Counted from the stretch's first letter, positions 7,510-45,978 are shown. The stretch is DNA of 45,978 nucleotides from an uncultured Candidatus Saccharibacteria bacterium (GCA_964479775.1 CAYZNH010000001.1:30032-76009), one strand, 5' to 3'. Numbers and translations: made by a program. The notes: generated by a model from the letters alone, not told the origin.

Positions 7510-7541
7510 AATATAAAATTTGTTATTTTTTATAAAAAGAC

Positions 7542-7569: not shown

Positions 7570-7578
7570 ACTTTCACT

Positions 7579-16577: not shown

Positions 16578-18977
16578 ATGAAAATATCTTACAATTGGTT
16601 AAATGCTTTTTTAAACAATAAAGCACCAGAGGCTCAAAAAGTAGCAGAGGCTCTTACGATGAATTCTATGGAAGTTGAAGGAGTAGAAAAACTTTCTAAT
16701 GATTTTTTGATGGAAGTAAAGACAACTCCAGACAAAAACCATTCTTGTTTATGTCACAGGGGTGTTGCAAAAGAAGCTGGGGCTATTCTTAATATAAAGA
16801 CAATAAAAAAATCTAGAGAGTATGCTGATTTTAAAATTTCTGAAACTGATAAAAAAATTGATGTAAAGATTGAAGATGAAAAACTTTGTAAAAGATATAT
16901 TGGTAGGGTTATAGAAGGTATAAAAGTTGGACCATCGCCACTTTGGCTAAAAGAGAGATTAGAATCGGTCGGACAGAGGTCTATAAATAACGTTGTTGAT
17001 GCAACAAATTTTGTAATGTTTGATATTGGCCAACCAATGCATGTTTTTGATGCGGATAAAATTGACGGACGGATTATTGTAAGGAAAGCCTTACAAGATG
17101 AACAAGTTGATTTATTAGGTCATGAAATAACTGCTAAGGGGGGAGAAACAATGATTCAGGACAGAAATATGACTCTTTCTGGTTCTGAGCTTGTTATAAC
17201 AGATAATAGCTCTGTTTTAGCTTTGGCGGGTATAAAGGGGGGTAAAAAAGCTGAATTAACAGATGAATCAGTAAATCTATTTTTGGAATCAGCAAATTTT
17301 GATCCAGTTTGTATTAGAAAGACAGCGAGCTTTTTTAAATTACAAACTGATGCCACAAAAAGATATGAGAATGAAATAAGTCCAGAAATTGCTTCTGAAG
17401 CCATGGATATTTTGACTAGAATAATAATTGAGACAGCAGGAACTCCTGATACGAAAATTGGTGAGATGGTGGATAATTATCCAAGAAGAGAAAATAAATT
17501 TAAACTTGGTATTTCAAGTGAAGAGGCTAGCTCTATAATTGGTGCTGACATAAAAGATTCTGACATAGAAGATATCTTTAATAGATTTGATTTTGAATGG
17601 AAAAAAGTTAAACCAATAGATGAAATTTTAAAAACAGCTGAGTCTTTTGTTGATGTACCTTATAAACTCGGTGCGAGTGTTTTAAGAGAAGCACCTAATT
17701 TTTTTGATTGTTCAGGTTTCATGTGTTTTTTATTTAATAATTATGGTGTATCTCTTCCTAGAATTTCAGTTGATCAATATGTTTGGGGAAAGAAAATTGA
17801 TAAAGAAGATTTAATCTCTGGCGATGTTATTTATTCAAATACAGGAGAAGGGAAGATACATACAAAAACAATAGAATTTTTGCCCGGTACAGATGTTTCT
17901 GAAGGAGTTGATCATTGTGGTTTGTATTTAGGAAATAATAAAATAATTCATGCAACCTCACTTTTTGGTAAGGTCATTATTGAAGATTTAGATAAGGCTG
18001 AAAGATTTAAAAATATAGTAGGGTTTAGAAGAATGTCTGATAATAAAGAAAGATTTGTTATTACTGTACCTGACGAAAGACTTGATCTTCGAATTAAAGA
18101 GGATTTAGCAGAAGATATAGGAAGAATATATGGTTATGATAAAGTAAAAGATTTAGAAATTCCAAAGAACATAGAAAAACCTAAAATTGATCAGGTTTTT
18201 GCCTATAAGCAGAGGATAAAAGAAATTCTTTATGAGGAGGGTTTTTCTGAAGTTATGAATTATACTTTTGTTGAGGATGGGGATTTTGAATTGGCAAATC
18301 CAACTTCACCAGAAAAAAGATTTTTAAGAACGAATCTTACTTTTGGTATGAAAAATTGTTTAGAATTTAATTCAAGATATTCTGAACTTATTGATATGCA
18401 ACAAATTAGAGTTTTTGAATTTGGCCATGTATTTTTAAAGTCTGGAGAGGAAAATCATTTTATAATTGGTATTAAAAATCCGCCAGGTTTTAAGACTATA
18501 AAAGAAAAAGAGTATTTAGATTCAATTTTAAAGAAACTCGAAGAAAAACTTGGACTTAAGCTTAATAAAATAAATAATGACGACAATATTGCTGAGTTTG
18601 ATCTAGATATTTTAGTAAAAGGATTACCAGAATTAACAGAATATAAACCAGAAATTTTCTCAGACGAATGGATTAAATTTAAACATATATCTCAATATCC
18701 TTTTATGACTCGTGATATAGCAGTTTTTACACCGGAAGGAACTAAACCTGAAGAAGTTTTTTCTATTATTTCTAGTGAGGCCGGAGAGCTTATGATAAAA
18801 AATAGACTTTTTGATGTATTTACAAAAAAGTTTCCTGATGGAGTATCAAAGACATCTTATGCATATCGTTTAATTTTTCAATCTTATGAAAAAACTCTTT
18901 CAGATGAAGAGGTGAATGTGATAATGCAAAAAATTACAGATAAGATGAATGCTAATGTTGGTTGGCAAGTAAGATAG
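16578..18977 (+). CDS. pheT: phenylalanine--tRNA ligase beta subunit with an inserted NlpC/P60-like domain
   Basis: MKISYNWL start, B3/4 region (QPMHVFDADKI), B5 halves (KFKLGISSEEASSIIG... and ...VITVPDERLDLRIKEDLAEDIGRIYGYDKV), and C-terminal FDVF...SYAYRLIFQS. Residues about 345-490 are an NlpC/P60 module. Confidence 0.9.
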   Translation: MKISYNWLNAFLNNKAPEAQKVAEALTMNSMEVEGVEKLSNDFLMEVKTTPDKNHSCLCHRGVAKEAGAILNIKTIKKSREYADFKISETDKKIDVKIEDEKLCKRYIGRVIEGIKVGPSPLWLKERLESVGQRSINNVVDATNFVMFDIGQPMHVFDADKIDGRIIVRKALQDEQVDLLGHEITAKGGETMIQDRNMTLSGSELVITDNSSVLALAGIKGGKKAELTDESVNLFLESANFDPVCIRKTASFFKLQTDATKRYENEISPEIASEAMDILTRIIIETAGTPDTKIGEMVDNYPRRENKFKLGISSEEASSIIGADIKDSDIEDIFNRFDFEWKKVKPIDEILKTAESFVDVPYKLGASVLREAPNFFDCSGFMCFLFNNYGVSLPRISVDQYVWGKKIDKEDLISGDVIYSNTGEGKIHTKTIEFLPGTDVSEGVDHCGLYLGNNKIIHATSLFGKVIIEDLDKAERFKNIVGFRRMSDNKERFVITVPDERLDLRIKEDLAEDIGRIYGYDKVKDLEIPKNIEKPKIDQVFAYKQRIKEILYEEGFSEVMNYTFVEDGDFELANPTSPEKRFLRTNLTFGMKNCLEFNSRYSELIDMQQIRVFEFGHVFLKSGEENHFIIGIKNPPGFKTIKEKEYLDSILKKLEEKLGLKLNKINNDDNIAEFDLDILVKGLPELTEYKPEIFSDEWIKFKHISQYPFMTRDIAVFTPEGTKPEEVFSIISSEAGELMIKNRLFDVFTKKFPDGVSKTSYAYRLIFQSYEKTLSDEEVNVIMQKITDKMNANVGWQVR

Positions 18978-28638: not shown

Positions 28639-29298
28639 ATGGATATCATGCTCAGAGAAGTACTAAAGGAACTCGTATATGTCCAAGAAAATCTTCTTGG
28701 GATAATTTACGACTTCTTGAAGAAGTTGAATGCCGACAAGACGGGGGAATTTTTGAAGCGATTCAAACTTTTTCTTCGTGACGAGCTCGTCGTTAGTAAA
28801 CCCGTTCGAGTTTGGAAAACGTGGATGACGATCAAACTCGGCACACTCAAGAATGTTGAAGAAATTCGCAAAGCCCTCAAGGCTGGCGGAAACAACATCA
28901 GTGACTGGGCGAATGACATCCTCGGCAAGCCCGCTTTCACGGTGAGCGAAACCGAACAGGAAGTCGAACTCGTGAATGTCTCCGTCGAAGAGTTGGGCTT
29001 CAAGCAAGGTGCTTGCTATGCAGACATCTGCAAGCGTGCATTGGAGCTTGGACTCGACCTGTGTCCTGCTGAAGTTGGTCCCCAACTGCGTTTGCAGTAT
29101 AAGGATCAGCCCAAGGGAACATACGTGGTAGTGGCGATGAATGCTATTATCGCTTCGGATGGCGATCTCATCGTGTTCGGTGTGGGGAGTTACGATGGTA
29201 GCGATCAGTATCTCGATGCCGACTTCGGCTATGCTGGCTATGTCTGGGTCGCTCACAGCCGTTTTGTGTTCCTGCGTCGCAAGAGCACTCAGAACTAG
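28639..29298 (+). CDS. hypothetical protein, GC-rich cassette 2 (distant paralogue of 6727-7416)
   Basis: 219-aa ORF with an SD 8 nt upstream. Hand count gives 34/60 GC in 28921-28980. The C-terminal region LCPAEVGPQLRLQYKDQPKG...VFGVGSYDG...LDAD...VWVAHSRFVFLRRK aligns by eye with the C-terminus of cassette 1. Confidence 0.65.
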   Translation: MDIMLREVLKELVYVQENLLGIIYDFLKKLNADKTGEFLKRFKLFLRDELVVSKPVRVWKTWMTIKLGTLKNVEEIRKALKAGGNNISDWANDILGKPAFTVSETEQEVELVNVSVEELGFKQGACYADICKRALELGLDLCPAEVGPQLRLQYKDQPKGTYVVVAMNAIIASDGDLIVFGVGSYDGSDQYLDADFGYAGYVWVAHSRFVFLRRKSTQN

Positions 29299-29368
29299 GT
29301 CCCTCAGATCTTTTGGATCCTTGGACCTTGGTTTAGTTAGAAGTACTGAAAAGGATGGTTAATAAATT

Positions 29369-29408
29369 GGCGGTGTTCTGTGTAATGCAGAACATCGCCT
29401 TTTCTTTT
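29369..29408 (+). terminator. rho-independent terminator of cassette 2
   Basis: GGCGGTGTTCTG (29369-29380) / CAGAACATCGCC (29388-29399), then TTTTCTTTT. Confidence 0.8.
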
Positions 29409-29541
29409 GGAAAATAACGAGCGAAGCGACTATATTTTCCTAGACCCCATTAAACTTTTTTGATTATTAAATTATTTATATAATAATTATATATATGTAA
29501 CTTATGTAAATAATATACAAAAGTAAAAAGTTGTACGGGGT
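29409..29541. repeat. second copy of the hairpin-plus-GC-clamp AT-rich element
   Basis: Stem GGAAAATA (29409-29416) / TATTTTCC (29433-29440). Its 16-nt loop ACGAGCGAAGCGACTA is 14/16 identical to the loop at 16356-16371. Then ACCCC (29444-29448) ... GGGGT (29537-29541) around AT-rich DNA. Confidence 0.55.
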
Positions 29542-29559
29542 TTTGCATTTTTTTGTATT

Positions 29560-29666
29560 GTCATTACGAGAAGGTACTCCGACGTAGTAATCCATGTTTG
29601 TATTTATTTTTAAAATTAAATTAATTAACCTGGATTGCCACAGGTGAGTACACCTTCGCAATGACG
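29560..29666. repeat. palindromic double-hairpin repeat (GCGAAGC-core family), copy 2
   Basis: The left arm is GTCATTACGAGAAGGTACTCCGACGTAGTAATCCATG. The reverse complement of the right arm is CGTCATTGCGAAGGTGTACTCACCTGTGGCAATCCAGG. An AT-rich loop of about 32 nt separates them, and the ends match copy 27642-27709. Confidence 0.65.
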
Positions 29667-29669
29667 TGC

Positions 29670-29681
29670 GGGGGGGGGGGG
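29670..29681. repeat. G12 homopolymer tract
   Basis: Twelve consecutive G (29670-29681) immediately after the palindromic element, in a genome of about 30% GC. Confidence 0.9.
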
Positions 29682-29791
29682 TATTATTGATAGTGAGCGA
29701 AGCTGAGCTTTTTGAAAGCCTTACGGAAATAAATTTGTAGCAACAAATTTCTTGAGTAGAGAATAAATTTTCTGACGAAAAAATTTATATC

Positions 29792-29822
29792 GTGCTTTAT
29801 AAAAGTTCTGCAAGCGAACTTT
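29792..29822 (-). terminator. terminator of dnaE
   Basis: AAAGTTC (29802-29808) / GAACTTT (29816-29822) hairpin abuts the dnaE stop. On the minus strand it is followed by TTTTAT. Confidence 0.55.
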
Positions 29823-32800
29823 TATTCAAGAATTTTAATTCTTTCCACAATCAAACTCACCTCATCATTTCTCTCTGAAACTTTACAGACAGCTGCAATA
29901 CATTTATCTACTGCCAAATTATTTTTTATTTGTGTATAAGTTTTAGGGAAGATGACTGCGTCTATTGAACCAGTAAAATCCGCAATTTTAATAAACACCA
30001 TCGGCTCATTTTTCTTTGTCATTATTTCTCTTATTTCTTCTATAATTCCACCAATAGGCCTACCCTCATTAACCAAATCTCTAACTGACTTAGTTTCTCT
30101 TGCCCCGTGAAGTTTTGAATCCTCTACTTCACTGGGGTCTTTTATCCTTTTAATATTTATATCTTGTTTATCAAGAACAGTTCTAAATCTGTCGAGTGGA
30201 TGTCCAGAAATGTAGAGTCCGAGAAGTTCTTTTTCCCAGAGAAGTTTATCTTTCATTGAGGCTTCAGGGGCTAGCTCGAGGGTAAATGCTTCTTTTTTAC
30301 CATCGTCAAACATACCAAAAAGTGAATCTTGACTATCATCTTTTTTGCTAACTTCTTTATTGTATTTCAAAAGATTCTCACAATTTGCTAGAAGCTGACC
30401 CCTTTCTCCAAATTCATCGAGCGCACCCGTCTTTATAAGAGCTTCAAGAGATTTTTTATTCATATTTCTATCAACAATTCTCTCGAGGAAATCTGATAAT
30501 GTTTTAAATTTACCTTTTTCTTTTCTGTTTTCTATAATAATTTTTGAAATACCTTCACCAAAGTTTTTAATAGTTGTAAGTCCAAACCTTATCTTGTCTG
30601 GTTCACCTTCAACTTTTACAACAGTAAAGTCACTGTAACTTTCATTTATAGATGGTGGAAGAACTGGAATTTGCATTCTTTTGCATTCAGTAATAAATTC
30701 ACCAATTTTTTCAACATCTCCAGCATCAGCAGTAAGTACAGCAGACATGTAAATAGCGGGGAAGTTTGCCTTCATATAAGAAGTCTGATACGACACTCTT
30801 CCATAGCTTGCAGCATGGGCTTTGTTAAATCCGTAAGCGGCGAAGGGCTCGATAAGCTTCCAAAGAGTTTGTGCTTTTTTGTCTGTTAGACCGTGTTCAA
30901 TAAAACCTTTGAGAAGTTTATCTTTTTGAGCTTCCATTTCTGCTGGGATTTTTTTACCCATAGCTTTTCTAAGTTTATCTGCCTCAAGCCAAGAATATCC
31001 CGCAAGTTTAATAGCAGTAAGCATAACGTCGTCCTGATATGTGATAACTCCATAAGATTGGTCCAGATACTCTTTCATTCTAGGATCCATATATTTAATT
31101 TTTTCTGGATGATGTTTTCTATCAATATATTCTGGAATGGATTCTATAGGACCAGGACGGTAAAGTGCCACCATAGCATTGATATCGTGTATAACTGTCG
31201 GTTTTAAATCTTTTAAATATTTCGTCATACCAGAACCATTGAGTTGAAAAAGACCACATGTCTCTCCACGAGCAAGCATGTCAAAAGTTTTTTTATCATC
31301 TAGTGGTATTTGTTCTATATCTAAATCAATATTTTCTATTTTTTTAACTCTATGCACTGCATCTGCAAGAATAGAAAGATTTTTAATACCAAGAAAGTCA
31401 AACTTCAAAAGTCCAACACCATCTTCTCCAACTCCATGCATATCGTATTGAGTGATAATCTTACCTTCACCTTTAGGATCGTATTGAAGTGGAACATAGT
31501 CTGTGAGAGGGGTAGGAGCTATCACAACACCAGCAGCATGAACAGAAATGTGTCGTGCACACCCTTCAATTTTTTGAGCCATATCTATAATTGCTTTTAC
31601 ATCTGCTTGTGTGTCATACATTTCTTTGAGTTCAGGAACTTCATCGAGAGCTCTTTTGAGAGTCATGGGAAAACCTTGTGCTCCCATGGGTACGAGTTTT
31701 GCTATTTTGTCGGCAAGTGGAAGAGGATATCTGAGGGCACGAGCAACATCTCGACATGCTCCACGAGCCATCATAGTACCGAATGTACCTATTTGAGCGA
31801 CATTATCATTACCATATTTTTGTCTTGCATATCGAATAACGTCATCACGTCTGTTATCAGCGTAGTCCATATCGATATCGGGAGCAGAAGGTCTTTCAGG
31901 GTTTAAAAATCTTTCAAAAGGAAGCTTAAAACTTATGGGGTCAACTTTTGTAATACCAGTAAGATAGGTGACAAGTGAACCAGCGACAGAACCTCTAATA
32001 TTTGTATATATATCATTTTCTGCAGAAAATCTGAGGAGGTCGGCTACCACCAGAAAGTATTTTGAGTATCCTTTATTTTTAATAACTTCAAGTTCATATT
32101 CAAGTCTTTTAATAACTTCTTCAGAATGTGGAAGACCTCTTTTATCGATACCTAAGTAAGCAATTCTTTTTAATTCTTCATCATTACTTAATCCGCTCTC
32201 TACAATATAGTTGGGGAATTTCCAAGCAGCTTGTCCAAGGATGATTTCAATATTGCATGCGTCTGCAATTTTAACAGTATTTTCTATCGCATCTGGAGTG
32301 TCCTTGAAATATTCAAGGGCTTTTTCTTCAGAGATGAGAGAAAAGTCATCGTTTGTTTCTTTTTGTTCTCTATCAGAAAAATCAGAGTGAGAGTTGACCA
32401 TTACTAGAGTATCTCTAGCCGTTTTGTCTTCTGGCTTTAAATAATAAACATCGTGTGCTGCGACAAGCTGTGTGTTTGTTTCTCTGGCAATTTTAATTAT
32501 TTTTTCTTTGAGTTCTATCTGGCCGTCTATTTCTGGGTGGTGAGTTATTTCAAGGAAAAAGTTGTCAGCACCATAAACTTTTTTGTACCAGTCAATAATA
32601 TTTTTTGCTTTTTCAAAATCATTATTTTTTAAAGCTCCTGAGGTTTCTCCAGAAAAATGTGGCATGATACATATTAAACCTTCAGAATATTTTTCTATAA
32701 GTTCTCGGTCGATTCTTGGTTTGTAGTAAAAACCTTCAAAATAAGAACCAGTAACTATTTTGATGAGGTTTTTATACCCGATTTCATTTTTAGCTAAAAG

Positions 32801-34760: not shown

Positions 34761-37439
34761 ATGCCACCATTTAATAATTTTACAACAAAAGCAAAAGAGG
34801 TTATAAGAAGGGCTCACGAGCTTGCTATTGAACGTGGACAAAATCATGTTAATCCACTTCATCTTTTAACAGCACTTGTCTTACAAGAAGAAAGTGTAGT
34901 TTCTTCCATTCTTGATAGGCTGGAGATAGACATAATTCTTTTTACTGATTCGATACTTGAGGCAATAGAAGCCACAAACACTTCAACAACTATTTCTCCA
35001 TCAAATCAAATTTATTTAACCCCAGATTTAGCACAGATTTTAGAATTATCTGGAAAAGAAACACAAGATTTAAAAGACGAATTCATTTCAACTGAACATT
35101 TATTTTTAGCGATTTTAGATACTCAATGTTCTGCAAAAGATTTGTTACAGAGATTTAAAATAGATAAAACAAAAATTTTAAATATTCTTTCTGAAATAAA
35201 AACCCTTAAGGGAGATGAAATAAATCAACCCAAAAAATATCGATCAATTTTAAAATATACTAGGAATCTTACAAAACTTGTGAGGGATAATAAACTCGAT
35301 CCTGTTATCGGAAGAGATAATGAAATCTCTAGAATAATTCAAATACTTTCAAGAAGGACAAAAAATAATCCTATTCTTATCGGTGAGGCAGGTGTTGGTA
35401 AAACTGCAATAGTAGAAGGACTTGCTATAAGGATTGCAAACGGTGATGTCCCAGAATCTTTAAAAGATAAAGAGTTGGTTTCACTTGATATGGGTTTATT
35501 GGTTGCGGGTACAAAATATAGAGGTGAGTTTGAAGAAAGATTAAAAAATATTATCAAAGAAATTGAAAAGTCAGAGGGTAAAATAATTCTTTTTATTGAT
35601 GAAATACACACTATTGTTGGAGCTGGTTCTGCCGAAGGATCTCTCGATGCTTCAAATATGTTGAAACCCGCTTTATCGAGAGGTGAACTTAGAACTATTG
35701 GTGCGACAACATTAAAAGAATATCAAAAGATAGAAAAAGATCCTGCTTTAACAAGAAGATTCCAACCTGTTTTGGTAAATGAGCCATCCATTGAAGATGC
35801 TGTAGCTATTTTAAGAGGACTTAAAGAAAAATATGAACTTTATCATGGTGTAAGAATTACTGACGATGCTATTCTTACAGCTGTAAATTTGAGCAGTAGA
35901 TATATTACAGATAGATTCTTACCAGACAAAGCTGTTGATCTTATAGATGAATCTGCTTCTATGCTTAAAATTTCTCTTGAAAATATGCCACCTGCTCTTG
36001 AGGAAACAAGAAGAAAAATAATGAGACTTGAGATTGAGAAAGAGGCTCTTAAAAAAGAGGTTGATGGAGAACGAAAGAAAGAAACAAAAAAAAGAATAGA
36101 AAACATAGAAAAAGAAATTGCAGATTTGAAGGAAAAAACTTCAGACCTTGAATTGCGTTGGACTACAGAAAAAGAAATTTTAACTGGTATTAAAAGTCTA
36201 AAAAAACAACTTGAAACACTTAGGATAGAAGCTGAAAATGCTGAAATTCAAGCTGATCTTTCAAAAGCTGCTGAAATACGATATGGAAAGATTCCTCAAG
36301 CCGAAAAAGAATTAGATATAAAAACTAAAAAACTTAAGAAACTTCAGTCAAATAGAAGGGTGTTGAAAGAAGAAATTACAGAAGAAGATATTGCTTTTGT
36401 TGTTTCTAAGTGGACTGGTGTACCAGTTTCTAGAATGCTTGAAAGTGAAATAAATAAACTTATGAGAATGGAGGATGGGCTTAAGGATAAAATCATTGGT
36501 CAGGATGAAGCTGTAAAGAAAATTTCAGAAACAATAAAGAGGTCTCGTGCTGGCATTGCTGATCCAAATAGACCTATTGGTTCATTTATATTTCTTGGTC
36601 CAACTGGTGTTGGTAAGACAGAACTTACAAAAGCTCTTGCTGAGTTTCTTTTTGATGATGAGAAAGCTTTGATACGAGTAGATATGTCTGAGTTTATGGA
36701 AAAGCATGCCACATCAAAGCTTATAGGTCCTCCACCAGGATATGTTGGATATGAAGAAGGTGGTTCGCTCACTGAAATTGTAAGACATAGACCATATTCT
36801 GTAATTCTTTTTGATGAAATAGAAAAAGCACATCCAGAAGTTTTTAACTTATTGTTGCAGGTTCTTGATGGAGGAAGACTTACTGATTCAAAAGGTAGAG
36901 TAGTTAACTTCAAAAATACTGTAATTATAATGACTTCAAATATTGGTGCTCAGTTTATCGACAAGATGGAGCAGATTGGTTTCTCTACATCAGAAAATAA
37001 AAATGATGAATATAATTTGGTAAAAGAAAAAGTTATGACAAGTTTGAAAGATTTCTTTAGACCAGAATTTATAAACCGTCTTGATGATATAGTTATCTTT
37101 GATATTTTGAGTCCTCTTGCTATAAGAAAAATTGTAGATATACAGATTGGACAAGTTAGAGAAAGGTTGTTATCTAAGAATATAAAAATGGATATAAAGG
37201 ACGGAGTATTAGAGTATCTTTCAAAGGAAGGTTACAATCCACAATACGGTGCAAGACCATTAAGAAGACTTATTCAAACCAAAATACTTAATCCGATTGC
37301 ATCTTTGATGATATCTCAAGGTATAATAAGCGGAGGAACAATAATAATCGGTATAAAGAACAATGAATTTACTTTTGATGTAAAGAAAGGGAAGAGAAAC
37401 GGTAATCTTGTAAAAGAAGTAATAGATATAGAAGAATAA
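34761..37439 (+). CDS. clpB: ATP-dependent chaperone ClpB
   Basis: Clp_N repeats, Walker [10 protein letters not shown] and GPTGVGKTE, a long middle coiled coil, and GARPLRR near the C-terminus. Confidence 0.95.
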
Positions 37440-37444
37440 TTTTT

Positions 37445-37477
37445 AAAATCCACCGAGGTTAAACCTCGGTGGATTTT
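37445..37477 (+). terminator. terminator after clpB
   Basis: AAAATCCACCGAGG / CCTCGGTGGATTTT with loop TTAAA. Confidence 0.8.
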
Positions 37478-37488
37478 AAAAATTATAT

Positions 37489-37516
37489 TTGAAAAAAGTA
37501 AAAAAGATGCTATTAT
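37489..37516 (+). promoter_or_regulatory. promoter of tRNA-Tyr
   Basis: TTGAAA 37489-37494, 16-nt spacer, TGcTATTAT 37508-37516. The tRNA starts at 37526. Confidence 0.55.
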
Positions 37517-37525
37517 ATTTCCGAT

Positions 37526-37609
37526 GCGTAGGTGGCGGAGTGGTCAATCGCAACTGACTGTAAATCAGTCGTCCTATGGACTACGTAGGTTCAAATCCTA
37601 CCCTACGCA
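37526..37609 (+). tRNA. tRNA-Tyr (anticodon GUA), long variable arm, CCA not encoded
   Basis: Acceptor GCGTAGG/CCTACGC, 3-bp D stem GCG/CGC, anticodon stem ACTGA/TCAGT with loop CTGTAAA. Variable arm GTCC-TAT-GGAC, T arm GTAGG-TTCAAAT-CCTAC, discriminator A. Confidence 0.9.
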
Positions 37610-37613
37610 CAAA

Positions 37614-37638
37614 ATAAATCGCGAATAGCGATTTTTTT
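37614..37638 (+). terminator. terminator after tRNA-Tyr
   Basis: AATCGC (37617-37622) / GCGATT (37628-37633), then T7. Confidence 0.7.
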
Positions 37639-37946
37639 GTGCGTAGGAGAAAGTGCTGGGGAGCACTTTCGTGTAGGATTTGAAGCCCGATTGAGCAGAT
37701 TTTGTGAGTGTTAACGAAACAAAATATCCAATCGGGGTACTGATCCTGTAAGGATCAAAATTCCTACCCATTCTTAGAATTTGAAAGACGGAAATCATTT
37801 TTATAGTAATAAATTTAATTGAGTCGGGGTCGCATAATTTTACGAACGACGGTGAGTAAAATATATGTGACCAAATCCTACCCTAAACTACTTTTAAAAA
37901 AAATAGGAAACCTGTACTGACCATGTAATGGTCAAAATTCCTACCT
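37639..37946 (+). repeat. array of tRNA-Tyr 3'-end-derived fragments (one inverted, three direct)
   Basis: GTGCGTAGG (37639-37647) and GTAGGATTTGAA (37673-37684) are reverse complements of tRNA positions 37602-37610 and 37590-37601. Direct copies occur at three sites. TCAAAATTCCTACCC lies at 37755-37769. CAAATCCTACCCTA at 37872-37885 is a 14-nt exact match to 37592-37605. TCAAAATTCCTACC lies at 37932-37945. Confidence 0.75.
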
Positions 37947-37999
37947 TATATACTAAAAACATTCTTTATTTTGTAGTTTAGATTAGATTTGAATTAAAC

Positions 38000-38028
38000 T
38001 TGACAAAAAAGATGATTAGTGCTATTCT
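38000..38028 (+). promoter_or_regulatory. promoter of GC-enriched cassette 3
   Basis: TTGACA 38000-38005 (again TTGACAA), 17-nt spacer, TGcTATTCT 38020-38028. Confidence 0.55.
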
Positions 38029-38122
38029 GTTAAATGGAAATCGGATCTTTGAGTTGTCTTAACGCTCGGACGAAACTGACTCAAAAGAGCCATAGAGCGT
38101 ATGCTAGAGGAAGGAGTTAAGT

Positions 38123-38878
38123 ATGAAGAGTAATGGTAACTGGAGTGAAAACAATTGGTCAGTTTTTTTGTGGCGGTTTTTTGGTTCGTCTATCGTTGGG
38201 CTCATTCTACCAGTTTTTGTTGGACTTTTCTGCTGTCTCTTCCGTTGCCTTGATGGCTGGAAAAGTCATCATTGGACGACGGAGGGCTTGTGGAGTTATC
38301 TGGCTATAACTGGTACGTTCGGATTCGTTTTCTTTTGTCTGAATTTCTGGTCAGAACACGCTCACATTTTTGTGACCAGACTGGAGAATGGAATAATCAT
38401 TTATGATAAGGCGAAAGGAAATCTTAGGGTAATAAGGGTGTTAGATCGGGTGATATTTGTTCGCGATAACCACCCATTCCTTAGTGATCTCTTTAAACTT
38501 TTTGTTATGTATGAGAGACACGGTGGTGAAGTCACTGTTCATCCAGTGACGGCAAATCCTAAAGTTCGGGATATTACATGTTATCTTTGTCTCAAGGTTG
38601 AAGCGATGACAGTTGAAAACCTCAATCGAGTGATTCGCTTTGTAGGTTTTGATCATCTCGGGTTTGCATATAGTTGGAGTGAAAGTGCAGATCTCAGTGA
38701 TGTTGCTAGAAGTTTACTCTATGATTTCGCAGAAGCTTATTCTCGAGACCTAGGTACACTCTTTAATCCGCTGAACGAAGACCAACAAGCCAGGTTCAAA
38801 GAATGGCTCACTGCCTTCGTCAATCCGAAACTGGCGGGATCTGGACTCGTGGTTGATTCTTGTTCCTTCAGTATATAA
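38123..38878 (+). CDS. hypothetical two-TM membrane protein, GC-enriched cassette 3
   Basis: Strong SD GAGGAAGGAG (38107-38116). Two hydrophobic helices (about residues 13-40 and 56-76), then a soluble domain of about 170 aa that I do not recognise. Confidence 0.6.
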   Translation: MKSNGNWSENNWSVFLWRFFGSSIVGLILPVFVGLFCCLFRCLDGWKSHHWTTEGLWSYLAITGTFGFVFFCLNFWSEHAHIFVTRLENGIIIYDKAKGNLRVIRVLDRVIFVRDNHPFLSDLFKLFVMYERHGGEVTVHPVTANPKVRDITCYLCLKVEAMTVENLNRVIRFVGFDHLGFAYSWSESADLSDVARSLLYDFAEAYSRDLGTLFNPLNEDQQARFKEWLTAFVNPKLAGSGLVVDSCSFSI

Positions 38879-38898
38879 TAAGAAGTTTTTTGTTAAGT

Positions 38899-38951
38899 CC
38901 ACTTCGTGAGCGGGAAAAAGTCCTGCTTTCACGAGTGGGCTTTTTCTTTTA
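38899..38951 (+). terminator. terminator of cassette 3
   Basis: CCACTTCGTGA... / ...TCACGAGTGGG imperfect stem followed by CTTTTTCTTTT. Confidence 0.6.
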
Positions 38952-38990
38952 TTTAAATTATATTTTTTCATTTAATATTATGATATATTT

Positions 38991-40214
38991 ATGCTAATGA
39001 AAAAGAAGATAACTTATTGGGCAATGTATGATTTTGCAAATTCATTTGTGCAAATGGCATACCTTTTCTATTTTTCTCAATGGTTGGTTATCGATCAAGG
39101 CAAATCAGCTTGGTGGTACAATTTGGCACTTGTTTTATCTTCTATTTTATTTTTTCTTACAGCTCCTTATATTGGTAAAAAAATTGATATATCAAAAAAG
39201 AAAGTTGTTGGTTTACGTATTTGGACTTTACTATCATTTACTGGCTTTTTGATTCTATCTTTATTGATGATGCTTACAAATGATCAAGAAATATTGGCTA
39301 CAGGATTATTTATTTTTTCAACGTATTTTTATTTAGTTAGTTTTCTTTATTATACTCCAATATTGAATGATCTTTCCACAAAAGATAATTGTTCTCTGGT
39401 TTCTGGTATTGGTTTTGGGGCAAATAGTGTTGGTCAAGTTTTGGGTATTTTAGTTACAATACCATTTGTCAACGGGTTAACTTTGTTTGGTGATCCCGGA
39501 CGAGCACAAGCGTTATTACCAGCAACAATTCTTTTTGGTCTTTTTTCAATACCAATGACTTTTTTGTATCGAGAAGAAAAGATTATTAATAATTTTGTTG
39601 AAGAAAAAACTAAACCATCTGTTATCTCTATGTTTAAATCAGTTTTTTCTCATAAATCTCTTGCTTTTGTGTTGATATCATATTTTTTGTTTAGTGACTC
39701 TCTCTTAACTTTTGCTAATAATTTTCCTTTATATTTAGAAGTTGTCTTTAAGGCTACTGATACAACCAAATCTCTTTTAACTGCAGGTATTTTAATTCTC
39801 TCGGCCCTGGGTGCATTAATATTTGGTAAAATTTCTGATAAGATTGGAAATGTTAAAATACTTAAAACAATTATTATCGTTTGGTGTGTGTTGTTTTTGT
39901 TGATGTCAGTGACTACAAATTTTAATTTTGCCATTCCAATTTTTCTTTTTGCTGGTATATTGTTTGGACCAATTTTTTCAATCTCTCGTTCTCTTGTTGG
40001 TTTGTTATCACCAGAACATTTACGAGCTTCGTCTTATAGTTATTTAGTACTAGCTGAAAGATTTGCTACTTTTATTGGGCCGGCTGTTTGGAGTGTCGTT
40101 CTCATTATGGCAGGTGAGACAATAACTGGTTATCGTGCAGGTCTGTTTTCTTTGGGAATTCTTCTTGTTGTTAGTTTATTCGCTCTTAATAGGGTTAAAG
40201 AACCAGATAATTAA
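38991..40214 (+). CDS. MFS transporter, UMF1/Atg22-like family
   Basis: YWAMYDFANSFVQMAYLFYFSQW N-terminal signature and about 12 hydrophobic segments. The -10 TATATT at 38984-38989 suggests the real, leaderless start is the second ATG at 38997. Confidence 0.75.
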   Translation: MLMKKKITYWAMYDFANSFVQMAYLFYFSQWLVIDQGKSAWWYNLALVLSSILFFLTAPYIGKKIDISKKKVVGLRIWTLLSFTGFLILSLLMMLTNDQEILATGLFIFSTYFYLVSFLYYTPILNDLSTKDNCSLVSGIGFGANSVGQVLGILVTIPFVNGLTLFGDPGRAQALLPATILFGLFSIPMTFLYREEKIINNFVEEKTKPSVISMFKSVFSHKSLAFVLISYFLFSDSLLTFANNFPLYLEVVFKATDTTKSLLTAGILILSALGALIFGKISDKIGNVKILKTIIIVWCVLFLLMSVTTNFNFAIPIFLFAGILFGPIFSISRSLVGLLSPEHLRASSYSYLVLAERFATFIGPAVWSVVLIMAGETITGYRAGLFSLGILLVVSLFALNRVKEPDN

Positions 40215-40268
40215 GATATTGATATTTAAAAGTATGAGATTTTGTTAATTTTTAAATTATTATTTTAT

Positions 40269-40296
40269 TTGCATTTTTTTATTAAATTGCTAATCT
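40269..40296 (+). promoter_or_regulatory. promoter of the zinc-ribbon cassette
   Basis: TTGCAT 40269-40274, 16-nt spacer, TGcTAATCT 40288-40296. Confidence 0.45.
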
Positions 40297-40340
40297 ATTT
40301 CTTAGACGTATCAAACTTAAACGACGAGAGGAGGATTCAG

Positions 40341-40514
40341 ATGGGCTATAAGAATAAGCATTATTCGAAGAAAGATCGGACTAACGGTAATGGTCACCAC
40401 TGTACAGGGTGTAAGAAACCTCTTTCTGGTTCAAGAATCAAAGCTCAAAAAACGATGTGTGTCGGATGTGAGGCAGAATCTCATCAGACCCACCGTCAGC
40501 TTTCTCGCTGGTAG
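40341..40514 (+). CDS. 57-aa basic zinc-ribbon protein (CxxC-x16-CxxC), GC-enriched cassette 4
   Basis: SD GAGAGGAGGA (40326-40335), then ATG 40341. Sequence MGYKNKHYSKKDRTNGNGHHCTGCKKPLSGSRIKAQKTMCVGCEAESHQTHRQLSRW. The ORF-track TTG start at 40242 adds an implausible AT-rich extension. Confidence 0.5.
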   Translation: MGYKNKHYSKKDRTNGNGHHCTGCKKPLSGSRIKAQKTMCVGCEAESHQTHRQLSRW

Positions 40515-40521
40515 TTTTTTT

Positions 40522-40553
40522 AAAAAAACGGGTCGCTTGCGACTCGTTTTTAT
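40522..40553 (+). terminator. terminator of the zinc-ribbon cassette
   Basis: ACGGGTCG (40528-40535) / CGACTCGT (40540-40547), loop CTTG. A-run before and T-run after. Confidence 0.75.
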
Positions 40554-40605
40554 TTATAATAATAAAATAGGTTTTATTATTATAAAAATATTGTATATTA
40601 GAGAT

Positions 40606-41748
40606 ATGAATAAAGAGCTAAGAAAAGGTCTAAGAACTTGGATAGAAATAGATAAAAAAGCTATTAAACATAATTTTAATACATTTAAAAAACTTTCTGG
40701 TGATAAAACAAAACTTTTAGCTGTTGTAAAATCCAATGCATATGGTCACAGTCTTGTGGATTTTTCTAAAGAAATGGTTACCCTTGGAGCAGATTTCCTG
40801 GGAGTAGACTCTATAGTTGAAGGTTTGGCATTGAGAAAAGAAAATATTAAAAAACCCATACTTGTACTCGGTTACACCTTACCAGAGCTTTTTATTGATG
40901 CTATAGAGAAAAATATAAGTATTACACTTTCAAGTTTTGATACAATCTCTGAAATAAAAAAGCTAGAAAATAAAACAAATAAAAAAATAAAAGTTCATCT
41001 AAAAGTTGATACAGGAATGTGTCGGCATGGTTTTCTTTTGAAAGATTTAGAAAAAGTTATAAAAGAAATAAAGAAATTAAAAAATATTGAGATAGAGGGT
41101 TTGTATACACATTTTTCTATTGCAAAAGATCCAGCTTCTCCAAACTTTACAAGAAAACAAATAAAAGAATTTATCCTTTGGAAAGAATCTTTTGAAAAGG
41201 AAGGGTTTAAACCAATTTGTCATACAAGTGCAACTTCTGGAGCTATAGTTTTTCCAGAAGCGAAGTTTGATATGGTGAGAATTGGTATTGGGCTTTATGG
41301 TCTTTGGCCATCAAAAGAAACAGAAATGGCTTTCTCGAATAAAATATTTTTAAAACCTGTTTTGAGTTGGAAGACAATAATAGGTGAGATAAAAACCTTA
41401 CCAAAGGGTTCGAGAGTGGGGTATGACGGAACAGAGATCTTAGAAAAAGAAACAAAAATTGCTATTTGCCCTGTTGGATATTGGCATGGTTTTCTCCGCG
41501 ATCTTTCTTGTAAAGCAAAGGTTCTAGTAAATGGAAAAAAGTGCAAAGTTCTTGGTAGAGTTTGTATGGATATAATAATGATAGATGTTTCAGAAATAAA
41601 AAATATTAAAGTAGGGGACGAAGTTGTAATAATAGGAGAGTCAGGAAAAGAAAAAATAACCGTTGATGACATGTCCTCAATAATATCAGGTTCAAGTTAT
41701 GAGTTTCTCACAAGAATAAATCCACTGATTAAAAGATTTTATTTGTAA
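40606..41748 (+). CDS. alr: alanine racemase
   Basis: AVVKSNAYGHS (PLP lysine motif) and GYDGT...ICPVGYWHG. The ORF-track start at 40390 overlaps the zinc-ribbon gene and its terminator. ATG 40606 (MNKELRKGLRTW) lies 6 nt after a -10 (TATATT 40594-40599). Confidence 0.85.
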   Translation: MNKELRKGLRTWIEIDKKAIKHNFNTFKKLSGDKTKLLAVVKSNAYGHSLVDFSKEMVTLGADFLGVDSIVEGLALRKENIKKPILVLGYTLPELFIDAIEKNISITLSSFDTISEIKKLENKTNKKIKVHLKVDTGMCRHGFLLKDLEKVIKEIKKLKNIEIEGLYTHFSIAKDPASPNFTRKQIKEFILWKESFEKEGFKPICHTSATSGAIVFPEAKFDMVRIGIGLYGLWPSKETEMAFSNKIFLKPVLSWKTIIGEIKTLPKGSRVGYDGTEILEKETKIAICPVGYWHGFLRDLSCKAKVLVNGKKCKVLGRVCMDIIMIDVSEIKNIKVGDEVVIIGESGKEKITVDDMSSIISGSSYEFLTRINPLIKRFYL

Positions 41749-41823
41749 AAATTTTGATTTTAGGAAGTTTATTGTTAGAATAATGAAAGTTTTGTTTTTA
41801 TTATTTTAATAAATAAATTTCTA

Positions 41824-44800
41824 ATGATATTTTTAATTAAAAAACCGTTTTTAATTCTGACGGTATTTTTGTCCATGTTTATCTTTAATAACTCTTTTGC
41901 AGAAACGTATATTGAGGATAATATTATATCTGTTGATACTACTTGGGCAAAAGAAAATAGCCCTTATATTTTAGGGGGCGATATTATTATAGATTCTGGA
42001 GTGACATTAACAATTGAATCTGGTGTTATTGTAAAAATTTTAAATAATTCTTATATAAATGTTTTTGGTAGTCTGTTTTCTAATGGGCAAGATGAGAATA
42101 TTAGTTTTATAACCGATGAGGGTTCTGTTTGGGGAGGTATCTATGTGGCTGATGGTGGAAGATTAGATATAAAAAATAATATAATTTCAAATGCTATAGA
42201 TTCTTTGTTGTTTGAAGATAGTAGTGGTTCTATAGATAACGTGCAAATAGTTGATTGTCAGGAAGGTATTAGTTTATATAGTAGTGAAATAGAATTAAAA
42301 AATAGTTCTCTAACAAATATTTTAAATTATTCTATTTATTTATCTTCTGCTTCAAAAATAATAATTAACAATACTAATTTTAGTAATATAGGAAGTAGTG
42401 TTGTTAATTTAAGTAATAATTCTTATTTAGATTTTATAAATTCAAATATTGATAATACAGATAGTTATTCTTTTTATGTTTTTAATAATAGTCATGCAAA
42501 AATATTAGATTCTAATATTAACAATACTTTAAAAGGTTTTTCTGCTTTTGGTGATAGTAGTATAGAAATTAAAAATTCCTCTTTTGATGGAATTATGAAT
42601 AATGATTGGTCTACTATTCCAATTTTTAATAATAGTAGTTTGATCATTTCTAGTTCAACGATTAAAAATATTTTTACTGATTCTCTTTTTCAAATATTTA
42701 ATGGTAGTACAGCATATATTTCTGGTTTGTTTGTTGACAATGTTGTTACTGATAATGTTTTTGTGGTTTTTGGTAGTGAATATTATGATAAAACTATTCT
42801 TAATATTGAAAACTCTAATATAAGAAATAAAAATGGTAATTCTTTTCAAATTTTTTCTAATACAAAAGCAAATATTTCAAAAACAAAAATAATAGACTCT
42901 TTAAATATTGGAATAGAAACTTTTTTATATCCAGAAATTACCATTGAAGATAGTGAGATATCTGGAAACGATATTGGTATAGCAAGTTACGGATCAAACT
43001 TAGAAGTAAAAAATAGTTCTATTGTTGGTAATAAGACTTTTGGAATATATAATATACCAATTGAAAGCGGTGCTCTTTCTATAAAAGCTATAAATAATTG
43101 GTGGGGTGATAAAAGTGGTCCATATAATGAATTATTAAATGCTACGGGGACAGGAAATATAGTTACTGAAAATGTTGGTTTCGTCCCCTGGTTAGAAAGT
43201 GATCCTAATAGTAAGAGAAATCCAGTAATTATTATTCCTGGAATATTGTCTAGTTACCTTAATAAAAATAATTACACGCACGAAGAAGTTTGGTTGAATT
43301 TGGAAAAGGCTTTATTGTCGAGAAATGATAATTATTTGGATGATTTACTTATGACAGAGTTTGGTGAACCAGATATGACTAAGACTTTGGTTTTACCAAC
43401 AGATATATTTAGGAAAATAAAAGTAACGAGTTTTGTTGAGGAAGATTTTTTTGATGGATTGATAAAAGAACTTGAAGAAGGTGGTTATAAAGAAGGAGAA
43501 GATTTGTTCGTTTTTCCTTACGACTGGCGTCTTGATATAAGAGATATTGTGGATAATTCCTATACATCACTAAATAAATCATTGAAAGATATGATAGATG
43601 AAATTTTAGAAAAAACTGGATCAGAAAAAATAGATATTGTAGCTCATAGTATGGGTGGTTTGATTTCAAAATATTATATTAAAAATTATGGTCAAGATAA
43701 GGTGGATGATTTTATAGATATTACTACTCCACATTTAGGTTCACCAGACGCTTTGAAAATTTTGATGTCGGGTGATGATATGGGAATAGGAGCAAAGGGT
43801 TTATCATTTCTTAATAAAAATAAAGTAAAAGAAATTTCTCAAAATATGCCTTCTGTATATCAACTACTACCAAGTCAGTCATATTTTTCTACTTCATTAC
43901 CCGATTATAATTATTACATAGATGACTTGGATGATTATGATGACAATAATATAAAAGGAAGATTATCTTTTGAAGAATCAAATAATTTTATAAAAAATAC
44001 TGGAAGAAATAGTTATGTTATGGACAGGTCTGTAAATATACATGATGAAATTGACTCTTTTAATTCTGAAGATTATGGTGTAGAAACATATAATGTTGTT
44101 GGTTGTGGCATTCCTACTGTTGGTAAGATCTTTACTTTGGGTAAGCAAAATGAATCAGATCCAGAATTTGATATTGCATATATAAATGGTGACGGGACTG
44201 TTCCACAAAGGAGCGCAGAAGCTTTAGTTTCAAAAAATACATATTATAAAACTGGAATAAAACATCCTATTATTTCTAGTTCAGATGGTGTAAAGGAGTT
44301 AGTATTTTCTTTATTAGAAAATAATATTGAGAGTTTTGACTATAGTTCTTTTAATACTATCTCTACTACTTCCGATAATTGTAAATTACCAAATGGAACA
44401 ACTTTGAGTTTTCATAGTCCCGTTGATGTGCATATTTATGATGAGTTAGGTAACCATACAGGACCAGATATAAATGGTGATATAGAAAATGGTATAGATG
44501 AGATATCTTATAATATTTTTGAAAATAATAAATTTGTATTTTTACCTGAAGGGAAAGAATATGAAATAAAATTACAAGCAACAGATATTGGTAGTTTTAG
44601 TTCTCATATTAAAAAGATTGAAGAAGGTGGTATAGTTTCTACTTCTTATTTTAGTACTATTCCTTTAAACAGTACAAGTACAAAGGCAAATGTGATTATA
44701 AAAGATGATATCCAAACCATAGAATTAGATAAAAATGGAGATGGATTGATAGAACAAATTATAAAACCATCTTCTATTATAATTGGAGATTCTCTGGTTG

Positions 44801-45567
44801 ATAGAGATACCCCGATTACAGCAGTAAATTTTATAAATATTAAAGAATCAGAAAATTCTTGGTATTCAAGGGATGTAGAAATAATGTTTAATGCAACAGA
44901 TACAGAATCGGGTATATTAAAAACAGAGTATTCTTTGGATAATGGTATTAATTATATTCAGGCTACAAGTAGTATAAAACTATCAAAAGAAGGAGAAAAT
45001 AAAATATTATATCGTTCTATAGATAAGGCAGGAAATATAGAAAAAGAAAAAAATATAAATATAAATATAGATAAAACAATACCAGAATTTTTATTTAATA
45101 TTGATTCTAAAAAGTTTGAATTAAATATTATTGGTTTTGATAATATTTCTTCTACTACATTAAAAGTATCTGATATTACAAAGAAACCAATTAAAAATCA
45201 TGTTTTCAAGAAGAGTAAAACTTATTTGTATAAAGTTTCTGATTTATCTGAATTAACTAATGAATTGATTTTAGAAATTAATCGTGAGAACGATAAAGTT
45301 CTTGATTATGATATTAGATTTCCAAATTTTAAAGATAATAAAAATATTTCTGTAACTGTTGTTAGGGATATTGATAAAAAGGGAAAAGTTAGAAGTTTTG
45401 TTCAAACAATAAGACAAGAGAGAGATATGATAACATACGTATATAATTCAAGGAGTAATAAAACAGTTATTTTTACAAAAGACGGTAGAGAAATTAGTAG
45501 AAAGATATATAATGAAGAAAAATTAGTTGAGTTTATTAGTGATAAGGGTGTAATAAAAATAAAGTAA
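41824..45567 (+). CDS. secreted 1247-aa protein: right-handed beta-helix repeats + LCAT/PGAP1-like alpha/beta-hydrolase (lipase) + Ig-like C-terminal modules
   Basis: Signal peptide. About 400 aa of N/S/I-rich 22-25-aa beta-helix-like repeats. PVIIIPGILSSYL and the nucleophile elbow VAHSMGG (43639-43659). Later WYSRDVEIMFNATDTESGILKTEYSLDNG...YRSIDKAGNIE (Ig-like / OmpL47-type module). Confidence 0.65.
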   Translation: MIFLIKKPFLILTVFLSMFIFNNSFAETYIEDNIISVDTTWAKENSPYILGGDIIIDSGVTLTIESGVIVKILNNSYINVFGSLFSNGQDENISFITDEGSVWGGIYVADGGRLDIKNNIISNAIDSLLFEDSSGSIDNVQIVDCQEGISLYSSEIELKNSSLTNILNYSIYLSSASKIIINNTNFSNIGSSVVNLSNNSYLDFINSNIDNTDSYSFYVFNNSHAKILDSNINNTLKGFSAFGDSSIEIKNSSFDGIMNNDWSTIPIFNNSSLIISSSTIKNIFTDSLFQIFNGSTAYISGLFVDNVVTDNVFVVFGSEYYDKTILNIENSNIRNKNGNSFQIFSNTKANISKTKIIDSLNIGIETFLYPEITIEDSEISGNDIGIASYGSNLEVKNSSIVGNKTFGIYNIPIESGALSIKAINNWWGDKSGPYNELLNATGTGNIVTENVGFVPWLESDPNSKRNPVIIIPGILSSYLNKNNYTHEEVWLNLEKALLSRNDNYLDDLLMTEFGEPDMTKTLVLPTDIFRKIKVTSFVEEDFFDGLIKELEEGGYKEGEDLFVFPYDWRLDIRDIVDNSYTSLNKSLKDMIDEILEKTGSEKIDIVAHSMGGLISKYYIKNYGQDKVDDFIDITTPHLGSPDALKILMSGDDMGIGAKGLSFLNKNKVKEISQNMPSVYQLLPSQSYFSTSLPDYNYYIDDLDDYDDNNIKGRLSFEESNNFIKNTGRNSYVMDRSVNIHDEIDSFNSEDYGVETYNVVGCGIPTVGKIFTLGKQNESDPEFDIAYINGDGTVPQRSAEALVSKNTYYKTGIKHPIISSSDGVKELVFSLLENNIESFDYSSFNTISTTSDNCKLPNGTTLSFHSPVDVHIYDELGNHTGPDINGDIENGIDEISYNIFENNKFVFLPEGKEYEIKLQATDIGSFSSHIKKIEEGGIVSTSYFSTIPLNSTSTKANVIIKDDIQTIELDKNGDGLIEQIIKPSSIIIGDSLVDRDTPITAVNFINIKESENSWYSRDVEIMFNATDTESGILKTEYSLDNGINYIQATSSIKLSKEGENKILYRSIDKAGNIEKEKNININIDKTIPEFLFNIDSKKFELNIIGFDNISSTTLKVSDITKKPIKNHVFKKSKTYLYKVSDLSELTNELILEINRENDKVLDYDIRFPNFKDNKNISVTVVRDIDKKGKVRSFVQTIRQERDMITYVYNSRSNKTVIFTKDGREISRKIYNEEKLVEFISDKGVIKIK

Positions 45568-45568
45568 A

Positions 45569-45865
45569 ATGTCAAAGATAAAATTGTTCCTTGTGTTTTT
45601 AATTAGTAATATCGTTCTTGTTGTACTTCCTTTAATTTGTTTTTATTTAATTAGTAGATTTAATTTTAGTTTAGATATAGCTTGGTTCTTGTACTACCTA
45701 TTAATTATGCCATTATTGGTGAATTCAATTATCTTATTTAAATTTAGAATTTATGACTTTTCTTATGTTTTTATGTTGTTTTTTACTATTTTTAGTTATT
45801 TTGTTTCTTATTATTCAGGCTTATTTTTTATTAGCGAAGTAATAAAAAATAGTTATTTGTTTTAA
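45569..45865 (+). CDS. hypothetical small polytopic membrane protein
   Basis: 98-aa ORF made almost entirely of hydrophobic helices. Starts 1 nt after the upstream stop. Confidence 0.4.
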   Translation: MSKIKLFLVFLISNIVLVVLPLICFYLISRFNFSLDIAWFLYYLLIMPLLVNSIILFKFRIYDFSYVFMLFFTIFSYFVSYYSGLFFISEVIKNSYLF

Positions 45866-45867
45866 TA

Positions 45868-45978
45868 ATGAAAATTAAAGATTTTCAAAAAGTTGATAGA
45901 CCTCGTGAAAAATTAAAAAAATATGGAACGAGTAAATTATCAGATAAGGAATTATTAGCGATTATTTTGTCTTCTGGT
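45868..45978 (+). CDS. radC: RadC-like JAB domain protein, N-terminal fragment (3' end outside window)
   Basis: MKIKDFQKVDRPREKLKKYGTSKLSDKELLAIILSSG matches the RadC N-terminal pattern (RPREKL...LSD.ELLAILL..G). Confidence 0.7.
   Translation, partial: MKIKDFQKVDRPREKLKKYGTSKLSDKELLAIILSSG

Follow-up and report, generated by a model that had tools for sequence, protein, structure and literature searches.

Structured non-coding units directly 3' of tRNA genes in CPR bacteria, and a decaying array of them behind a tRNA-Tyr gene

Among described systems, the tyrT-tyrV locus of Escherichia coli is the nearest analogue of the units that we report here from CPR bacteria (Patescibacteria). There, likewise, a tRNA-Tyr gene is followed by tandem units that each hold a copy of the tRNA 3' end; strain MG1655 has three such units at 178-bp spacing, with six direct copies of the 16-mer CCTTCCCCCACCACCA, and rttR and tpr are annotated at the locus. 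RttR is cut out of the tRNA operon transcript. The E. coli units differ from those of CPR bacteria in having neither inverted copies nor arms, and hence no mimic of a tRNA minihelix. They show no homology to R1, the covariance model defined in this analysis (at most 9.8 bits), and RttR is absent from the Rfam matches of the DNA studied here. They are also confined to one locus and one tRNA in enterobacteria, whereas the CPR units are spread over many kinds of tRNA.

Other systems share single traits with the CPR units. At the att sites of islands and prophages in tRNA genes, the tRNA 3' segment is duplicated from the T loop onwards, downstream of an intact tRNA gene, and occupancy differs between relatives, as it does for the units. 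The latter, unlike att sites, come with no integrase and no cargo, and they contain a structured insert of 100-155 nt, an internal complement and identical tandem copies. The tRNA-like domain of tmRNA, the bacterial Y-RNA-like YrlA and mascRNA are, like the units, coaxial mimics of the acceptor stem and T-stem with a discriminator, in which the other arms are replaced or reduced. RNase P, RNase Z or the CCA-adding enzyme can act on mimics of this type (for YrlA, PMC4201824). In contrast to these RNAs, the CPR units copy the particular tRNA next to them, form tandem repeats, belong to no Rfam family and have a paired extension and a variable core in place of the T loop. REP/BIME sequences, palindromes derived from IS200/IS605 and MITEs resemble the units in size, richness in hairpins, patchy and multicopy occurrence and truncated copies, but they lack the strict site and orientation behind tRNAs and the target-matched arms, and no partner transposase was seen among the ORFs scanned in the DNA studied here.

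We analysed a window of 45,978 nt, one contiguous stretch of the chromosome of an uncultured Candidatus Saccharibacteria bacterium. An initial annotation of this stretch had described repeats of the 3' end of a tRNA-Tyr gene and offered two readings of them: scars of serial integration that could have brought in the downstream genes ('cassette 3'), or a structured tRNA-like non-coding RNA under selection. CPR bacteria make up a large share of bacterial diversity, and their RNA biology is almost unexplored. Elements of about 130 nt behind their tRNA genes are a testable object for the processing of tRNA precursors with minimal RNase sets, and they bear on whether tRNA mimics can act as selfish passengers of tRNA genes and on whether selection or template switching keeps the arms fitted to a partner that changes.

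The array behind tRNA-Tyr in the window

The tRNA-Tyr gene (anticodon GTA, 37526-37610; this and the features below are on the + strand) was identified by ARAGORN and by Rfam (64.2 bits). It lies downstream of clpB (34761-37439), has the acceptor GCGTAGG/CCTACGC and the T arm GTAGG-TTCAAAT-CCTAC, and does not encode CCA. A promoter-like site (TTGAAA, 16 nt, TATTAT; 37489-37516) precedes it as a match to the consensus. Its trailer (37611-37640) consists of a terminator-like hairpin, AAATCGC-GAATA-GCGATTT (37616-37634), and a T run, and the trailer palindrome reaches outward into the acceptor 3' strand of tRNA-Tyr. A second palindrome, a perfect 25-nt inverted repeat with 1 nt between its arms (37436-37486), forms a bidirectional terminator after clpB and accounts for weak spurious Rfam hits to miRNA and sRNA families.

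The inverted and direct repeats behind the gene were all found where the initial annotation had placed them. The last 21 nt of tRNA-Tyr do recur in inverted orientation, split by a hairpin: the sequence 37632-37647 is 94% complementary to 37602-37617, at and just past the end of the gene, GTAGGATTTGAA at 37673-37684 is the perfect complement of 37590-37601, and the hairpin AAAGTGCT-GGGG-AGCACTTT (37650-37669) separates the two. The 14-nt direct copy was confirmed as well, CAAATCCTACCCTA being exact at both 37592 and 37872. Copies of this 14-mer with up to three mismatches were not rare (5 found, 5.0 expected), and because their number is that of chance, the degenerate copies count in context only. 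Two modules, M1 (37737-37768) and M3 (37914-37945), had been called related, and they are so far beyond chance: 28 of 32 positions are identical, with 0 matches expected (100 shuffles), and the four differences form two compensatory pairs in a 7-bp stem around GTA.

These repeats are parts of three units. Unit A (37641-37769) starts 31 nt past tRNA-Tyr and matches R1 over its full length with 92.8 bits. It opens with the 5' strand of helix P1, GCGTAGG (37641-37647), which copies the 5' acceptor strand of the tRNA and equals the complement of its 3' strand. An invariant AG, the hairpin named above, which is P2, and an invariant CGT follow (37648-37672). The 5' strand of P3 (37673-37685) reads GTAGG, which repeats the 5' strand of the T-stem, then ATTTGAA, complementary to the T loop, and lastly G. 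P4 (37686-37736) is a two-part long hairpin, CCCGATTG...CAATCGGG, with the apical sequence GAG...CGAA. The last segment (37737-37769), that of M1, comprises the junction GTACT, P5 with GATCCT-GTA-AGGATC (37742-37756) and the tail AAAATTCCTACCC, a degenerate copy of the 3' half of the T loop and of the T-stem 3' strand. The part from 37641 to 37685 fits the strict motif given below and corresponds to R1 positions 1-42; the P4-GUACU-P5 core lies at 37686-37756, and all features up to P5 are as in the R1 family. The tail ends after CCTACCC, so that P3 is present and the acceptor 3' strand is absent, which is why P1 is marked as non-paired in the R1 alignment of this unit. Folding of unit A gave -49.3 kcal/mol (z = -5.6).

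Unit B (37773-37885), which aligns with loci L109, L004, L120, L149 and L001, is truncated at its 5' end and is without acceptor copy and P2. It has a degenerate T-loop complement, TAGAATTTGAA (37775-37785), and a core of the 'GTGAC' type, it retains the tail sequence CCTACCCTA, and its tail at 37872-37885 is the exact copy of 37592-37605 already mentioned. Unit C (37906-37948), which contains M3, is a remnant with a local match to R1 positions 96-115. It consists of the end of the P4 3' strand, GGAAACCT, GTACT, P5 with GACCAT-GTA-ATGGTC (37919-37933) and the tail AAAATTCCTACCTTA, a module that is also present in L132, L085 and L117. Units B and C have no 5' arms. The three units represent three subtypes, unit C being only the last part of its own.

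We read the repeats of the window as an array in decay that comprises three copies, each of a different subtype, from a family of structured elements at tRNA 3' ends, and we consider it very likely that they belong to the conserved family described in the next section. All copies of the tRNA-Tyr 3' end lie within 37592-37948 and none was found in 37949-45978; a search of 37611-38000 with ARAGORN and Rfam RF00005, even at E<=10, yielded no further tRNA or tRNA pseudogene. The end of the array is marked by a promoter-like site (38000-38028) of the downstream operon, whose genes run from 38123 on, and no promoter-like site was found within the array, from 37640 to 38000. The array belongs with the tRNA and not with 'cassette 3'. 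The window copy is probably a relic, placed as it is after a terminator, without its own promoter-like site and with the P1 3' strand missing.

The surrounding sequence is low-GC chromosomal DNA of about 30% G+C. Stretches of 36-40% occur at 38001-39000, 6001-8000 and 29001-32000, against roughly 30% elsewhere; the first of them (40%) covers an ORF of 251 aa (38123-38878) just past the array, which had no Pfam match. Exact-protein look-ups of ClpB and of this ORF found no record. The 37 window ORFs scanned with Pfam are housekeeping, surface or unassigned proteins, and no integrase, transposase, recombinase or HUH enzyme was detected among them, nor a Y1 HUH transposase (TnpA/RAYT). One ORF (16578-18977) encodes a phenylalanyl-tRNA synthetase beta chain with an NlpC/P60 peptidase domain (residues 360-484) between the B3_4 and B5 domains, an unusual insertion for PheT. 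A repeat search over the whole window revealed no repeated 'cassettes' at the DNA level.

A family of units behind CPR tRNA genes

The closest relatives of the window's ClpB (61-73% identity) belong to metagenome-assembled genomes of Patescibacteria. In several of them tRNA-Tyr is downstream of clpB, and in L001, L003, L004 and L005 the same architecture follows it, with segments that copy each genome's own tRNA. Units are absent from L002 and L010. The divergence in ClpB between all these genomes is too great to fix the junctions. The genes downstream of tRNA-Tyr are different in every relative, and some are on the opposite strand.

Metagenome sequences were scanned with the strict motif AGAAAG-N(8-20)-CTTTCGT-NNN-GGATTYGAA, which was present in 78 contigs, about 55 of them with a tRNA on the same strand 3-60 nt upstream; a scan of viral contigs gave 0 matches. 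Model R1 (132 positions, 45 pairs) was derived from a seed of six units of equal P2 length, with a structure written by hand, because MAFFT misaligned the 5' arm when P2 lengths differed. It produced 98 hits at E<0.01 and 0 hits at E<=1 on 1.16 Mb from 70 non-CPR loci. For 70 of the 98 hits an upstream tRNA was identified (within about 60 nt, same strand), and these tRNAs comprise 17 anticodon types. Several contigs (L103, L107, L094, L088, L113) carry more than one tRNA, each with its own unit. Rfam 15, searched at the gathering threshold and at E<=10, contained no family matching the units and returned for the window only the tRNA and chance hits to the palindrome after clpB; a literature search, thin on subscription journals, found no description of such an element. 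The family is apparently undescribed; in CPR bacteria, the kinds of tRNA gene that it follows number at least 17.

Twenty loci without an ARAGORN tRNA were searched with Rfam, which called tRNAs and one group I intron only. The intron (RF00028, 76.3 bits) is at 191-429 on the - strand of L157, a contig that also bears two units. In L084 (reverse strand; about 10800-11095 of the oriented copy), a tRNA-Asn(GTT) is split in the anticodon loop by an intron-like insertion of about 220 nt, which is why ARAGORN misses it and which Rfam did not call at the gathering threshold; this tRNA, too, is trailed by a unit.

A full unit has about 100-155 nt and is colinear with the tRNA that it follows. It begins with a copy of positions 1-7 of the acceptor strand, AG, a hairpin with the base AAAG...CUUU (P2) and CGU, continues with a copy of the T-stem 5' strand, the T-loop complement and a variable core, and ends with a copy of the T-loop 3' half, the T-stem 3' strand, the acceptor 3' strand and the discriminator. 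AG and CGU are invariant and the AAAG/CUUU base is almost so; AG, P2 and CGU take the place of the D arm, anticodon arm and variable arm. The core, which replaces the T loop, is mostly P4, GUACU and P5 with a GUA triloop. By pairing between the 5' arms and the 3' tail (P1 and P3), the unit mimics the acceptor/T-stem minihelix around a conserved three-way junction, whose unpaired nucleotides AG, CGU, GAAG and GGUACU are conserved. In most units 10-12 of 12 positions match between arm and tail, over many different acceptor sequences.

The fold is well supported by covariation. In 82 distinct units, all 45 base pairs of R1 have changed on both sides, and covariation is very strong in all six helices. 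Paired cells amounted to 92.7%, as compared with 62.6% in shuffles, and the covariation score was 0.597, as compared with 0.149 in shuffles (reached in 0 of 500) and at most 0.089 with partners slid; as the alignment was fitted by R1 itself, these figures are somewhat inflated. P2 was paired in 99.1% of cases, with covariation in its upper stem, while P1 was the weakest helix, at 82.7%. On the tRNA-sense strand G.U-type pairs outnumbered A.C-type pairs by 129 to 59, measured on an alignment by a model that prefers G.U over A.C. For the family, then, covariation in six helices and the z value of unit A uphold the idea of a structured tRNA-like element under selection. The element is not specific to Tyr, however, and the array in the window is partly decayed. 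The GTA loop of P5, which had been taken for the Tyr anticodon triplet, is a coincidence: it is shared by 57 of the 82 distinct units, whose identified neighbours include 13 non-Tyr anticodon types. Besides tRNA-Tyr, the tRNAs that precede it are those for Ser, Leu, Arg, Gly, Pro, Val, Glu and Asn, so it is not an anticodon copy.

Units occur singly or in identical tandem copies (three in L139 at 155 nt, two each in L129 and L104), and their number is unequal in near-identical contexts (L129 vs L139, L104 vs L146). An array often closes with a partial unit, P2 and then a T run, and truncated units are common across the family. Likeness between cores is independent of tRNA identity. The core of the window's Tyr-associated unit is 93% identical to an Arg-associated core and 87% identical to a Ser-associated one; the figure for the core of L132 is 93%. 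Among units on different contigs that follow tRNAs of one kind or of related kinds, some are 91-92% alike. The distance of 115-180 nt between copies of the tRNA 3' end is taken up by conserved structured non-coding sequence and not by cargo. At the tRNA 3' end the units have been inserted duplicatively, and each closes with a copy of that end. Both variation and covariation were found among the homologous loci; the initial annotation had reckoned with the absence of both if its two readings were wrong.

Further copies of the window core, with other arms, exist in the window's source sample. With run X1, short-read contigs of that sample broke inside the array (37595-37675), and contigs from other copies of the core piled up on 37676-37763. 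Such units probably interrupt assemblies behind tRNA genes in CPR genomes generally.

RNA-level and DNA-level readings of the units

The best explanation overall, to which we give a probability of about 0.6, is that the repeats are a decaying array from a family of small non-coding structured elements directly 3' of CPR tRNA genes, together with the mechanism proposed here. That the units act at the RNA level and are processed by the tRNA machinery is a more tentative proposal, with slightly less than even odds. On this proposal, the sense strand would be the folded strand, and the RNA would arise by co-transcription or by read-through from the tRNA promoter. Minihelices are substrates of the enzymes that process tRNA ends, namely RNase P, RNase Z and the CCA-adding enzyme. 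With its tRNA-like ends a unit could therefore be a substrate for these three enzymes, which might free it from the transcript as a discrete small RNA. Tandem amplification would be driven by the tRNA 3' segment that is repeated, through unequal recombination, and the arms would be held matched to the neighbour tRNA by selection, possibly aided by template switching during replication in the palindrome. Template switching is known to create and maintain perfect stems (PMC8794818), and would explain how arms stay matched to each tRNA. The element would behave more like a selfish or accessory passenger of tRNA genes than like an essential part of them.

We considered the possibility that the units act as DNA, the sense strand folding as single-stranded DNA, for instance on the lagging-strand template, and RNA playing no part. 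The unit would then be a non-autonomous mobile element or one generated by replication, and the duplex of arm and tail would mimic the double-stranded 3' end of the tRNA gene or simply result from repeated template switching and slippage around the terminator palindrome. Perfect palindromes of up to about 24-36 bp link the tRNA 3' strand, the trailer and the arms, and the family contains two conserved GNA triloops, C-GAA-G within the trailer motif ACGAAGTGA and Y-GTA-R in P5. GNA triloops are exceptionally stable in single-stranded DNA; seen along with the long perfect palindromes that extend into the tRNA gene, they would suit a structure at the DNA level just as well. The tandem amplification, the truncated copies and the patchy occurrence agree with a DNA element, and the strand bias of G.U (or G.T) over A.C pairs is as compatible with single-stranded DNA as with RNA; in the window it is the G-rich strand that folds, which is probably the lagging-strand template.

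Transcription bears on both readings. At 27 of 51 distinct loci, one of them that of the window, tRNA and unit are separated by a terminator-like hairpin and T run of the window's trailer type, which is in keeping with a DNA element and because of which many units would be transcribed by read-through only. In L093, on the other hand, a unit lies between tRNA-Ser and tRNA-Leu, inside a tRNA operon, the spacers being 18 and 6 nt long and a terminator being absent; this implies co-transcription, so that here a unit must be part of the operon transcript. RNA runs mapped to L136 covered the tRNA alone, with reads from other organisms' tRNAs. Furthermore, an RNA on which tRNA enzymes act would account more readily for a conserved unpaired junction and a design colinear with tRNA, the Pfam scan of window ORFs detected no transposase, integrase or HUH enzyme, and the motif was absent from the viral contigs scanned. 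Taken together, we regard the DNA-level explanation as unlikely, though it retains some weight.

A bolder variant, which we hold to be improbable, makes the units a new class of elements that are non-coding, propagate themselves and are specific to tRNA genes. In a small RNA or single-stranded DNA, a split 'guide' would be the complement of three parts of the host tRNA gene, its T-loop, T-stem and acceptor 3' strand, and pairing of this guide, together with a conserved junction that is perhaps catalytic or recruits a host enzyme, would lead to excision, copying and reinsertion behind tRNA genes. In one version of it, the core would be a new self-cleaving or ligating ribozyme that produces unit-length RNAs from tandem arrays. 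A search of 37400-38200 with Rfam at E<=10 found no hammerhead, twister, pistol, hatchet, hairpin or HDV-like ribozyme. Likeness to hammerhead, hairpin ribozyme and group II domain V, considered by eye, was rejected, as the core motifs misfit and none is found in Rfam.

Much less probable still is the first reading of the initial annotation, by which the copies are what remains (attL/attR) of genomic islands or prophages that an integrase inserted serially at the 3' end of tRNA-Tyr, one of them bringing the downstream genes. Direct copies of the tRNA 3' end do lie downstream of the gene, the site is variable, with a gene content after tRNA-Tyr that differs per relative, and the 1 kb from 38001 stands out from its surroundings in G+C. 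Yet every copy in the window is upstream of the downstream genes and none lies beyond them, and what separates the copies is conserved structured sequence 115-180 nt long. Inverted copies are foreign to att scars, and the units stand behind 17 tRNA types with arms matched to each, a match that att sites do not need. The search for an integrase that had been proposed was negative for the ORFs scanned in the 46-kb window. CCA is kept by the distal copy alone in L090, L092, L139 and L155, as would be the case for a displaced native 3' end, but the polarity is inconsistent, the opposite pattern being seen in L127 and L142. The reading is largely refuted; what stands of it is a kernel, namely that there are duplicative insertions at the tRNA 3' end whose copy number varies between relatives, whereas the arrival of 'cassette 3' with them is not supported. 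In practice, R1 explains why tRNA genes of CPR metagenome-assembled genomes can be followed by repeats and breaks in assembly, and it guards against mistaking units for the att sites of islands that have integrated.

A cis-regulatory leader (T-box-like or an attenuator) that senses tRNA-Tyr and controls the operon from 38123 would suit the location upstream of that operon and the hairpins and sequences complementary to tRNA, but it is scarcely credible, as the downstream genes are unrelated between loci and in some cases on the other strand, a separate promoter-like site follows the array, Rfam shows no T-box or other leader even at E<=10, the complement targets the paired 3' strand of the tRNA and not the anticodon or NCCA, and units are also found between tRNA genes.

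Two further ideas were tried and rejected. The units are not primer-binding sites complementary to the 3' end of the mature tRNA, since the complement tracks the genomic trailer (CACAAAA/TTTTGTG) and not CCA. Nor do CPR tRNA genes in general carry, past the terminator, an extension complementary to the acceptor: it was present in 10 of 79 unit-less tRNAs, as compared with 7 of 79 in the control, and most of these 10 cases are units missed by R1.

Other sequences were noticed next to the family. A second conserved non-coding sequence terminates in CGAAATAYATTCGAACTTYGTCC, after which come 8-10 nt and then only the last 4-6 nt of a tRNA acceptor 3' strand. This sequence has no Rfam match and lies directly upstream of units where an intact tRNA is absent (in oriented copies, L081 at about 150-250, L108 at about 440-530, L115 at about 4290-4330 and L122 at about 110-170); it may be another element associated with tRNA 3' ends. 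In L001, tRNA-Lys (90-163) and tRNA-Leu (3517-3598), both on the - strand, are followed by a perfect 7-nt acceptor complement and then by AAGAAG instead of AGAAAG, which suggests further unit variants missed by R1.
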